From the NCBI GenBank assembly GCA_963422365.1, contig OY729426.1, forward strand, positions 2,016,001-2,080,000: a stretch of DNA of 64,000 nucleotides, written 5' to 3'. Numbering within the stretch: the stretch's first letter is position 1; the number at the start of each line of letters is the position of its first letter. The position numbers are program-made. Positions 14,501-17,500 of the stretch are shown in pieces. Origin of the DNA: Nitrospirales bacterium. GTDB lineage: Bacteria > Nitrospirota > Nitrospiria > Nitrospirales > UBA8639.

Positions 14501-17500
14501 ATCTCTATCTATTCTTACCTGCCAAGCCATTCATGAGGATCTATCAATTCCCATCCCTAACCAACACCGACAATTCGCAAGAGAGTCTGATGATGATCTC
14601 AAAACCTCAGTCCGGAGTGCAGTCCGAACATACGCCTCGCTCCTCCTCAACCAGATGGATGGTTCAGGGTAGAATGCTCTGCTTGCTGGGCACAGCCCTG
14701 TTAGCGGGATGCACCAGTACCGAACAATATCAGGCCGAAAAGGCACGGGGCTTAAACTTTCAACGCTTGTTGGCACAAGAGGAACGACGCGTCAACGCAT
14801 TGAACACCCAATTGGCACAAAAGGAAAAACAAATAGAGGAACTCAATGCCCAATGGGAAGAGACGAAGCGTAAAATAGCGTCGGTGGAATCGCAAAATCG
14901 TGAACTTGTTTCGCAAAACCGTCATCTGACCGTTGAGCTTGACGCCCTTCGAGAGCAAAGCACTCGTCAGCAGGCAAAAAGGCCTGCTGTTGACTCCCCT
15001 GCCCTATCAAGAGGCCTCGACACTCAAGAAAGGCCGCTTTCCGACACCTCGCTTTCAAATCCTTTTATGACTGAAGAAGATCTGATGAATATACTTAAGT
15101 CCGAAGGTAACGCCGGCGGGCCCAAAACTCAATAAGCCGAGACACCGCCCTCAGTATACTCAACGCTTCTGGTTACATCAGTTAAGTAAAGTTTTCTCTC
15201 CCACGTAGAGAAGGAAAACATCGCTTATCGTGTCTCGACATTTGACATTTATGGGCTCTCCTTTTATTCTTAGCATGATATTCGGTATCTCTATTCTAGC
15301 CGAACCATCTGGCACGAGCGAATACCATTTTCTCGCAAACCTAACGGATAAAACCAGAAAGGGAGCCTGATGATGACCCTCACACCTCAATCCAGAGCGC
15401 AGCATCAACAGGAGCCTTGCTTCTCCTCAACCAGATGGACCGTTCAGGGAGGAATACTCTGCCTGCTAGGTGCAGCCTTGGTATCGGGATGTGTGAGTTC
15501 GGACCAATATCAGGCAGAAAAGTCCCGCGCCTTAAACTTCCAACGTTTGTTGTCACAAGAGGAACAGCGGACGAGCGAACTCGATACCCGATTACAAGAG
15601 GCAAAACAGGAAATATCATCGTTGGGATCCCAAAACCGTGAACTTGCGGCTGAGCTTGATGTCCTTCAAGAGCAAATCGGTCGTCAGCAACCAAGTGCCC
15701 CAGCAGGGGGTTTCCCTGTCCCATCAAGCGATCCCGACGCCTCGCGGGAAATGCCTCCTTCAGAACCATCGCTTTCAGAATTCGGGCTGAATGATTTTTC
15801 CTTCGATGAGTCGGATTTTAACGACTTCGGTATGGGGAAAACTGATGCTGGCGGTTTGGGAACATCGACCTATTACACGGTTGTTCGTGGAGACACCTTA
15901 TACCAGATTTCTCGTGAATATGGTGTGACCGTTGATCAATTGAAAGCGTGGAATAACCTTACCGACAACATTATTTCTATTGGCCAACGGCTAATCGTGA
16001 GTCCACCGTAATCGTCCCCATCCTCACCATTGCCCTTTCCTGTTTGAGAAAGCCACCTTTTCTCGATGCTTGTGTTTTACCCTGAGTCGACCCCTCCATT
16101 CTTCAGGAACACCGTCTCATGACCGGAACGACGTGCCACTCTTTCCGTGTCTATTTCCTGTATCAATTGCCACAATGGACATATTTTCTCTTACAAAAAA
16201 GATTACAAGTTAGGGATGTGATGGGTGGGATTATGATTTCGTTCGAGGACAGGGACATGCCCTTAGCGACCAAGAAGAACGCGCCATGAGATGGCGCCAC
16301 TACAACAGAAAAAGAAGGTAACTAGCCGCTTATTCTGTCAATGAATGAGTGAACATTGACAAGAATGAATGACAAAGAACGGATTAGAGCCAGTCTTGCC
16401 TACCCTAAGCCTAGCGAAGGGAACGACGTAAAGAAAAAGCTGTTAGCCGGCCAACTGGGTCGGTCGTTCTGAAACCGAGGGCAGAGATCCTTGACGGGTG
16501 GAGTGTTCAAACCGATGCCCGTTCACGGTGATGTTCCAATTCCAGTACTCCCCATTTTGCATTGAGTACATTTCTACCTCGATACGGTTGCCGCGTTCCA
16601 CGGAAACGGGTCGGTCGATGGGAAAAAAGGCCAGCCCCCAATGAGAGGCTTTATCCTGAGGACCGTTGGAGATACAAAGCGTCGGGATCAATGCGGATTT
16701 AAACCAACCCGCCAGCCCATGAAACCACCCCCGCCGTTTGGCAGAGATGGAGAAGTTGGCTTTGACTTCTGCCTGTATCGTTTCCGCAAATTGAATCTCT
16801 TCCACACGGAGAGGATCACCAAGGAACGTTCCTTCATGTAACTTCACCGGATGAAAGTTGTTCACCGTCAAGTTGCGAACAGGTGAGAAGTCGAACCCTT
16901 GACATTTGTTCACCCAAAAATCAAGGACGTGTTCATAAAATTGTGGCAGTTCAACTGGCACAAAGAATAAGTCCGCGCTACAGGGAATGAGTGTTCCGCC
17001 TTTTTTGAGAAAACGATCTCGGGCATCAGTGAGAGATCCGATAATCCCCTCTTCAAAACCAAACGTGCCCATCGTCTCCGTGACGATCACATCAGCCTGT
17101 TCAGGCAACTCAACATTGAAAGACAGGTCATTGTAAAACGTGATTCGATCCTGGACCCCGTTTTTCGCTGCCACAAGTTTGGCAATTTCGATGACAGCTT
17201 CACTCTCCATGGCATACACATGACGGGCGCCGGCACGGCAAGCGAAGAAAGAGAGAATGCCTGACCCACAACCTACGTCCACAACCACGTCGCCTGGTTT
17301 GACAACCTGGGAAATAGCTTGACGGTACGCACCGGTCCGTGTCTCATCAACCAACATCGACAGGTGATAATTGATGAAGTCGGTGTACTTCGTCATGAGT
17401 TCTTTCCCCTTCAGCAGACAAAAAAGACGCAACGATCAATTCAACAGGGGCAAACGGATCGCGGCGTCCTACGTGATGGGTTGCTCCATCCTCAGCGCAC

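Follow-up and report, generated by a model that had tools for sequence, protein, structure and literature searches.

The window, a 64,000-nucleotide stretch of a Nitrospirales genome, carries a gene for a 317-aa protein that is a complete and probably active enzyme of the protein arginine methyltransferase (PRMT) type. What is new is that this PRMT subfamily goes together, in Nitrospirales, with a gene for a DDAH-like methylarginine hydrolase, a fairly specific clue to its function. This PRMT-DDAH link suggests methylation of the bacterium's own rather than host proteins, and it is reasonably probable that the enzyme works in the cytoplasm as an arginine N-methyltransferase on proteins of the cell itself, coupled to salvage by the DDAH. 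The gene and its surroundings in the window are:

16443..17396, minus strand: PRMT-like SAM-dependent methyltransferase gene, 317 aa (open frame, Pfam, structure matches, model)
16281..16297, minus strand: terminator-like hairpin, 3' of the PRMT-like gene (consensus match only)
17778..19325, plus strand: ampG, muropeptide transporter, divergent neighbour (conserved order)
14473..16011, plus strand: genes for a coiled-coil protein and a coiled-coil/LysM protein, convergent neighbours (conserved order)

Translation of positions 16443-17396 on the minus strand yields an uninterrupted protein. An in-frame TTG lies 12 codons 5' of this start; the ATG at 17396 is the common start of all 29 related loci compared and is preceded by a purine-rich ribosome-binding stretch. 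The gene is present in one copy in the genome (one contig, 98.6% complete), its GC content and composition are ordinary and its gene order is stable. With dN/dS values of 0.09-0.19 in 10 of 10 pairwise comparisons with relatives, it is under purifying selection and is a real, intact and conserved gene. It forms a single transcription unit, with ampG divergent on one side and the LysM gene convergent on the other. The hairpin sits within a short element that recurs elsewhere in the genome, and no sigma-70-like promoter was seen between 15900 and 17900. A 191-base contig from one run, guessed to be RNA, falls inside the gene and is not evidence of transcription. Across 43 loci and the window, the ampG cluster is found in at least 38 of the 44 sources and the coiled-coil/LysM cluster in at least 37, and in other genera the PRMT-like gene adjoins unrelated genes. 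The neighbourhood is an inherited gene order with no sign of a common pathway with ampG, in agreement with the survey's finding, which had considered the neighbours uninformative.

Regarding the architecture of the protein, both Pfam PRMT_C (E 4e-16) and PRMT5_C (1e-9) pass their cut-offs. PRMT2, yeast Hmt1, PRMT6 and CARM1 rank first in a search of solved structures (E 6e-39 to 1e-33), where type I structures reach E values of about 1e-39 to 1e-26 as against about 1e-18 for PRMT7 and PRMT9. An AlphaFold2 model based on a 43-row alignment (pLDDT 91.1, pTM 0.87) predicts a fold that Foldseek aligns with PRMT3, PRMT6, Hmt1 and PRMT1 structures at TM 0.73-0.82 and 24-32% identity. The Rossmann domain, beta-barrel and dimerisation arm, the structural marks of a PRMT, are all present according to Pfam, the model and Foldseek. 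The survey had described a complete PRMT core with a motif I loop, a double-E loop and an SHW loop; the Pfam hits, solved-structure matches and model bear out the core, and the motifs are all found in the sequence:

17337..17366, minus strand: N-terminal active-site helix, residues 11-20 (H11, M14, D17, R20), which aligns with H-x-x-M-L-x-D-x-x-R of type I PRMTs
17202..17285, minus strand: motif I glycine loop (residues 38-46) and post-I acidic E64, SAM binding (sequence compared with motif definitions)
17049..17078, minus strand: double-E loop, E107 to E116 (alignment)
16866..16946, minus strand: dimerisation arm, about residues 151-177 (alignment, model, dimer prediction)
16638..16646, minus strand: SHW loop, residues 251-253, equivalent of the THW loop (alignment)

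All six motifs (I, post-I, II, III, double-E and THW) are matched, the list and definitions being those given in the accessible part of PMC12469536. E107 and E116 are nine residues apart, as in PRMT6, PRMT2 and Hmt1. All 21 members sampled from the Nitrospirales clade retain both glutamates, the HW pair, M14, D17 and R20; of the 87 closest proteins in the database, 85 have both glutamates. From the available text of the respective papers, the His of the THW loop is catalytically important in PRMT1 (PMC13184939), whose activity needs arm-mediated dimerisation (PMC8592882). A homodimer is predicted for the window protein with a score of 0.69 as against 0.00 for the best control (pLDDT 88), at least 77% of the contacts agreeing between runs; in it the arm packs against helices 45-51 and 67-79 of the partner's Rossmann domain. 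Of 30 solved homodimers, 20 pass the mark that this prediction passes, as does 1 of 23 monomers, and the pass may stem from likeness to solved PRMT dimers.

The sequence is nearer to type I than to type II or III PRMTs. Whether the MLxD helix holds a Met or a Phe bears on PRMT type, and the residue here is Met (M14). Type I PRMTs also carry an N-terminal YFxxY aromatic helix covering SAM. Only 10 residues precede H11, which leaves little room for such a helix in full; one aromatic residue may come from a conserved Y-T-D-F segment. Where type I enzymes have a Met after the second Glu, the window protein has an Ile (position 118). The protein is PRMT-like and leans towards type I, and a type I product (asymmetric dimethylarginine) is putative. 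Of the type I claim in the survey's finding, closeness by sequence holds, whereas product specificity is not borne out, considering the short N-terminus and Ile118. Type III-like monomethylation would fit the DDAH link equally well.

The partner gene of the same genome is:

G000:C1:1350943-1351689: DDAH-like gene (catalytic set, Pseudomonas DDAH match)

It lies far from the PRMT-like gene, upstream of mutY- and mutT-like genes. A Lys at the HLK[TS] position is significant for DDAH assignment, and the encoded protein has it (HLKT) together with the catalytic set of an acidic pair, His and Cys. It matches Pseudomonas DDAH (PDB 3rhy, 1h70) at E 3e-40. Because the DDAH-like proteins, with 206 bits (that of the window genome) and 179 bits, score below the curated dimethylargininase cut-off of NCBIfam (340), methylarginine is their putative substrate.

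Elsewhere in Nitrospirales the two genes can be found side by side: of 8 close loci with a tail-bearing homologue, 4 (L130, L131, L172 and L173) have the DDAH-like gene as the divergent upstream neighbour. When an orthologue is defined by at least 63% identity, 44 of the 115 genomes of the family have an orthologue and 35 a DDAH; 33 have both, 11 the orthologue only and 2 the DDAH only, these two being 94% and 64% complete. At the level of the order (401 genomes), both occur in 35, DDAH only in 1, the orthologue only in 11 and neither in 354, i.e., 35 of 36 genomes with DDAH also have the orthologue, and DDAH occurs in none of the 41 order genomes with distant homologues only. In a second family (f2), 3 of 282 genomes carry the orthologue, and DDAH is found in two of these three and in no other; the two genes are adjacent in one of its genomes (G284), which is not counted as an additional pair because it may be one of the four loci above. 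The 301 genomes of a phylum sample, which overlaps the order sample, include 20 with DDAH, all 20 with the orthologue. All these co-occurrence counts are not independent because most of the co-occurring genomes belong to one genus, in which 7 genomes have the PRMT without DDAH. That PRMT can be present without DDAH, and DDAH is almost never found without PRMT, fits a salvage account.

Outside Nitrospirales, DDAH shows no link to intact homologues: it is present in 18 of 55 genomes with non-lasso loci as against 7 of 22 with lasso loci (L072 and L073 dropped as duplicate genomes; completeness of the genomes not known), which rules out DDAH as a partner across the whole family. Between the two Nitrospirales groups, the DDAHs share only about 39% identity and do not group. 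Their joint grouping is rejected at the borderline (AU p 0.041), which hints that the two main lineages may have been acquired separately. The DDAHs fall into up to three lineages, and with the third (that of G350) included a single origin is not rejected (AU p 0.114). PRMT-DDAH fusions were absent from the 7 hits of a search for longer proteins, which is weak evidence.

The enzyme could also combine its PRMT architecture with another target, a His or Lys within a protein or peptide, in the way of the thioamitide enzyme TsaG, the link with DDAH then reflecting shared inheritance. Such a role is suggested by TsaG itself, for which bis-N-methylation of histidine and a predicted PRMT homology are described in the accessible text of its report (bioRxiv 10.1101/2020.12.17.423248), by other bacterial branches with altered double-E and THW motifs, which indicate that the family does switch targets, and by the missing DDAH link outside Nitrospirales. 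It is nevertheless rather unlikely here, since the glutamates and the HW pair are kept throughout the sampled clade, and adjacency and co-occurrence with DDAH are seen in two families. A second alternative, which we consider unlikely, is a small-molecule module, in which free arginine or a short peptide would be methylated and DDAH would set the methylarginine pool, possibly with effects on the host; methylarginine inhibits nitric-oxide synthase in animals. Divergent PRMT-DDAH pairs suggest a co-regulation tighter than salvage requires, and no substrate gene tracks the enzyme in the loci and genomes compared. However, the peptide-binding dimer arm and the beta-barrel are intact, eukaryotic PRMTs require a peptide context, a search of the genome found no nitric-oxide synthase, and a groundwater record (L130) carries the gene pair.

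A homologue search retrieved 541 proteins at E<=1e-3. Within the genus, an orthologue is present in 36 of 37 other genomes; the survey had given 35 of 37. In a FastTree phylogeny, midpoint-rooted and including only 7 eukaryotic PRMTs, mostly CARM1-like, the window protein falls within a clade of Nitrospirales sequences (support 1.0), the basal ones of which bear a tail; it branches among bacterial homologues, far from the eukaryotic sequences. This clade is old and includes a sequence from groundwater. Many relatives reach 375-385 aa owing to a C-terminal tail of about 70 aa, which the window protein does not have and which its lineage has lost.

Lasso operons are the setting of another branch: 23 of 79 distant loci hold at least 2 lasso-operon genes, namely those for PqqD, B2 peptidase, a cyclase-like protein, an HprK-related kinase and a nucleotidyltransferase. 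In a 141-sequence alignment, from which homologues shorter than 280 aa or unclustered (e.g., L073, L098, L099 and L121) were omitted, the double-E is kept in 2 of 22 lasso-operon members and the HW pair in none of the 22, as against double-E and Trp in 48 of 54 stand-alone members. The family mislabelled 'L11 methyltransferase' splits in two, stand-alone members with intact motifs and lasso-operon members whose motifs are altered, which can guide the choice of enzymes for arginine assays. The survey mentioned neither this lasso-operon branch nor the tail of the basal relatives nor the DDAH partner. The window gene could itself be a RiPP-tailoring enzyme or an orphan of a lasso cluster with its precursor peptide encoded elsewhere, given those operons and given that the tail of close Nitrospira relatives is homologous to that of lasso-operon members (HH probability 99%), with a weak match to PqqD (E 3e-4) below the cut-off. 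The likeness to PqqD is too weak for the tail to be taken as a proven leader-binding domain, profile comparison of the tails with PqqD proteins giving a probability below 2%. We consider such a role very unlikely for the window copy: it lacks the tail, no RiPP operon is seen at any close locus inspected, and in the distant lasso members the catalytic motifs are mostly gone. At the window locus itself there is no precursor, leader-binding protein, peptidase or cyclase. The 98.6% complete genome yields no match to PqqD or lasso B2 and no full-length cyclase, with three short partial Asn-synthase hits only, which speaks against a RiPP role for this copy.

A secreted effector that methylates sponge-host proteins such as histones, in the manner of SET-domain nucleomodulins, was the boldest proposal of the survey. 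The genus, which we take to be sponge-associated, carries the gene almost universally and the fold is eukaryote-like. On the other side, the N-terminus has neither a hydrophobic nor a twin-arginine signal, just as the survey had seen no signal peptide or secretion motif, and the C-terminus is variable and unremarkable. Markers for T3SS, T4SS, T6SS and sheath systems (FlhA/SctV, VirB4, TssC and sheath families) have no match in the genome, in a search that used one marker family per system and whose scope did not extend to Dot/Icm and type I/II secretion. Furthermore, orthologues occur in groundwater and other environmental records, the gene is distant from the eukaryotic PRMTs in the tree and ordinary in GC content and gene order, and the DDAH partner is intracellular. 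An effector role is highly improbable and should be dropped.

According to the preferred reading, a cytoplasmic homodimeric enzyme would transfer methyl groups from SAM to the omega nitrogen of arginine in the mode of eukaryotic PRMTs. E107 and E116 would clamp the guanidinium, H252 of the SHW loop together with D17, R20 and M14 would shape the active site, and each subunit would have its SAM pocket completed by the arm of its partner. Mono- or asymmetric dimethylarginine would thereby arise on one or several of the cell's own proteins, and the methylarginine freed by protein turnover would be hydrolysed by the DDAH-like enzyme to citrulline and (di)methylamine. DDAH hydrolyses mono- and asymmetric but not symmetric methylarginine, and hence the product should be that of a type I or type III enzyme. 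The survey had proposed methylation of arginine in the bacterium's own proteins, which the DDAH link independently supports. The best candidate substrate, weakly supported, is:

G000:C1:2279234-2279656: RRM RNA-binding protein with an RGG tail

This is the top RGG-rich genuine protein in the genome, the other RGG-rich frames being repeat-array or shadow frames except for one 375-aa protein, and PRMT1/3/6/8 prefer GAR/RGG motifs according to the accessible part of PMC12469536. RRM proteins occur in 114 of the 115 family genomes, and RGG-tailed ones also in relatives lacking the orthologue; for this reason the protein cannot explain the distribution of the orthologue and is ruled out as its cause. 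A bacterial histone is not among the candidates, PF00808 having no match in the genome at E<=0.1.

The usual view of bacterial DDAHs is that they scavenge methylarginine from outside the cell. It can be hypothesized, with slightly less than an even chance in our judgement, that the Nitrospirales lineage runs a eukaryote-style cycle in which a true PRMT places (asymmetric) methylarginine on cellular proteins, RNA-binding ones with RGG tails or others, and the DDAH inherited along with it removes the product. If true, there would be an endogenous reason for a bacterial DDAH, an insight into the bacterial pool that gave rise to eukaryotic PRMTs and, within the searched literature, a first bacterial PRMT acting on protein arginine. 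In the boldest version, free methylarginine in sponge symbionts could affect the nitric-oxide signalling of the host. With a distribution that tracks a DDAH-like gene, this compact and intact PRMT allows a direct test of a bacterial methylarginine cycle. It is small, looks soluble and can be studied with standard PRMT assays. The literature search, of partial coverage with most subscription papers outside it, retrieved no characterised arginine-acting bacterial PRMT and no PRMT-DDAH gene pair. To our knowledge, bacterial PRMT homologues have likely been mentioned on bioinformatic grounds before. PRMT arginine methylation is described as eukaryotic in the accessible portions of reviews.

With regards to known systems, PrmA, the ribosomal protein L11 lysine methyltransferase, shares only the Rossmann SAM domain with the window protein. 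The match to TIGR00406 (PrmA) covers residues 26-137 only and reaches 45 bits, far below the family cut-off of 183; since it is confined to the Rossmann part and a PRMT barrel is present instead, 'L11 methyltransferase' is an over-transferred label. The uncharacterised PRMT-fold methyltransferases of lasso operons are closer (30-42% identity), and their tail is homologous to that of the basal Nitrospira relatives, but they differ in operon context, in the altered double-E and HW motifs and in their separate tree branches. Carboxyl methylation, phosphorylation, glycosylation and deimination are among the modifications in the accessible text of a lasso review (PMC8498205), where arginine methylation does not figure. 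The literature searched, as far as its text was accessible, reports homology to PRMTs for a single characterised bacterial enzyme, TsaG. Compared by its published description, the thioamitide methyltransferase TsaG/TvaG is, like the window protein, bacterial, labelled pfam06325 and of predicted PRMT homology, whereas it acts on a RiPP His within a biosynthetic cluster and the window gene stands alone.

The NDUFAF7/MidA family, responsible for the dimethylation of the complex I subunit Nqo4, is not PRMT-fold. In Paracoccus denitrificans, Nqo4 is arginine-dimethylated, i.e., omega-N-methylarginine exists on bacterial proteins, although the product there is symmetric, according to the accessible part of PMC3750175. 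The eukaryotic type I PRMTs (PRMT6, PRMT2, PRMT1/Hmt1, PRMT3 and CARM1) have in common with the window protein the Rossmann domain, barrel and arm, motifs I, post-I, II and III, the double-E spacing, the HW loop, the MLxD helix and the predicted arm-to-Rossmann homodimer. The window protein differs from them as a bare bacterial core that lacks an N-terminal extension and whose aromatic N-terminal helix looks incomplete. It has SHW in place of THW, a Thr instead of the Ser ahead of the first Glu, and an Ile instead of the Met that follows the second. As to the eukaryotic PRMT-DDAH (ADMA) axis, the Nitrospirales genes differ in sometimes forming a divergent pair, in a genome without a detected NO synthase, and are alike in combining a methylarginine maker and breaker, here putative, in one cell.

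A short intergenic element with a hairpin at 16281-16297 lies at 16241-16400 of the window, and it has 28 other partial matches in the same genome. Two further genes stand in the surroundings of the PRMT-like gene:

13411-14409, minus strand: MoxR-like AAA ATPase, preceding the next gene
11515-13404, minus strand: conserved 629-aa protein, without a match in Pfam or NCBIfam

Elsewhere on the same contig (G000:C1:875700-881700), many short frames share a translated motif recurring at regular spacing, and the region looks like a CRISPR array.

In the records L038 and L040, the orthologue is immediately preceded, on the same strand, by tryptophan dioxygenase and kynureninase genes. 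Two other loci, L043 and the groundwater record L130, hold:

L043:110-2674: radical SAM and ATP-grasp genes, upstream of the orthologue
L130:2612-2917, plus strand: nitrite oxidoreductase subunit B, 3' fragment lacking a start (PDB 7b04, E 3e-38)

The radical SAM protein of L043 is CUAEP-tail-like, its score being slightly below the cut-off, and an opposite-strand gene stands between this pair and the orthologue. The L130 fragment, which lies about 40 bases past the PRMT gene, is either a remnant or a misassembly.

Among more distant homologues, lasso-type operons are widespread (L049, L051, L053, L064-L066, L082, L097, L103, L107, L116, and others), combining PqqD, B2, cyclase-like, HprK-related kinase and nucleotidyltransferase genes with a PRMT-fold enzyme that carries the C-terminal tail and an altered active site. 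Stand-alone homologues with a Cys-rich, SEC-C-like motif at the C-terminal end occur in L058, L062, and L063. Two further architectures are:

L075:761-3179: tandem pair of PRMT-fold genes at a single locus
G052:C40:18663-19496: PRMT domain within a 2133-aa open frame, in a relative's genome

The stand-alone bacterial homologues of L078-L094, L100-L106, L114, and L117 display eukaryote-like SEW-x-G and THW motifs, and in the tree they are closer to the eukaryotic sequences than is the window's clade. As a candidate sister group to the PRMTs of eukaryotes, these homologues are better suited than the window's clade.
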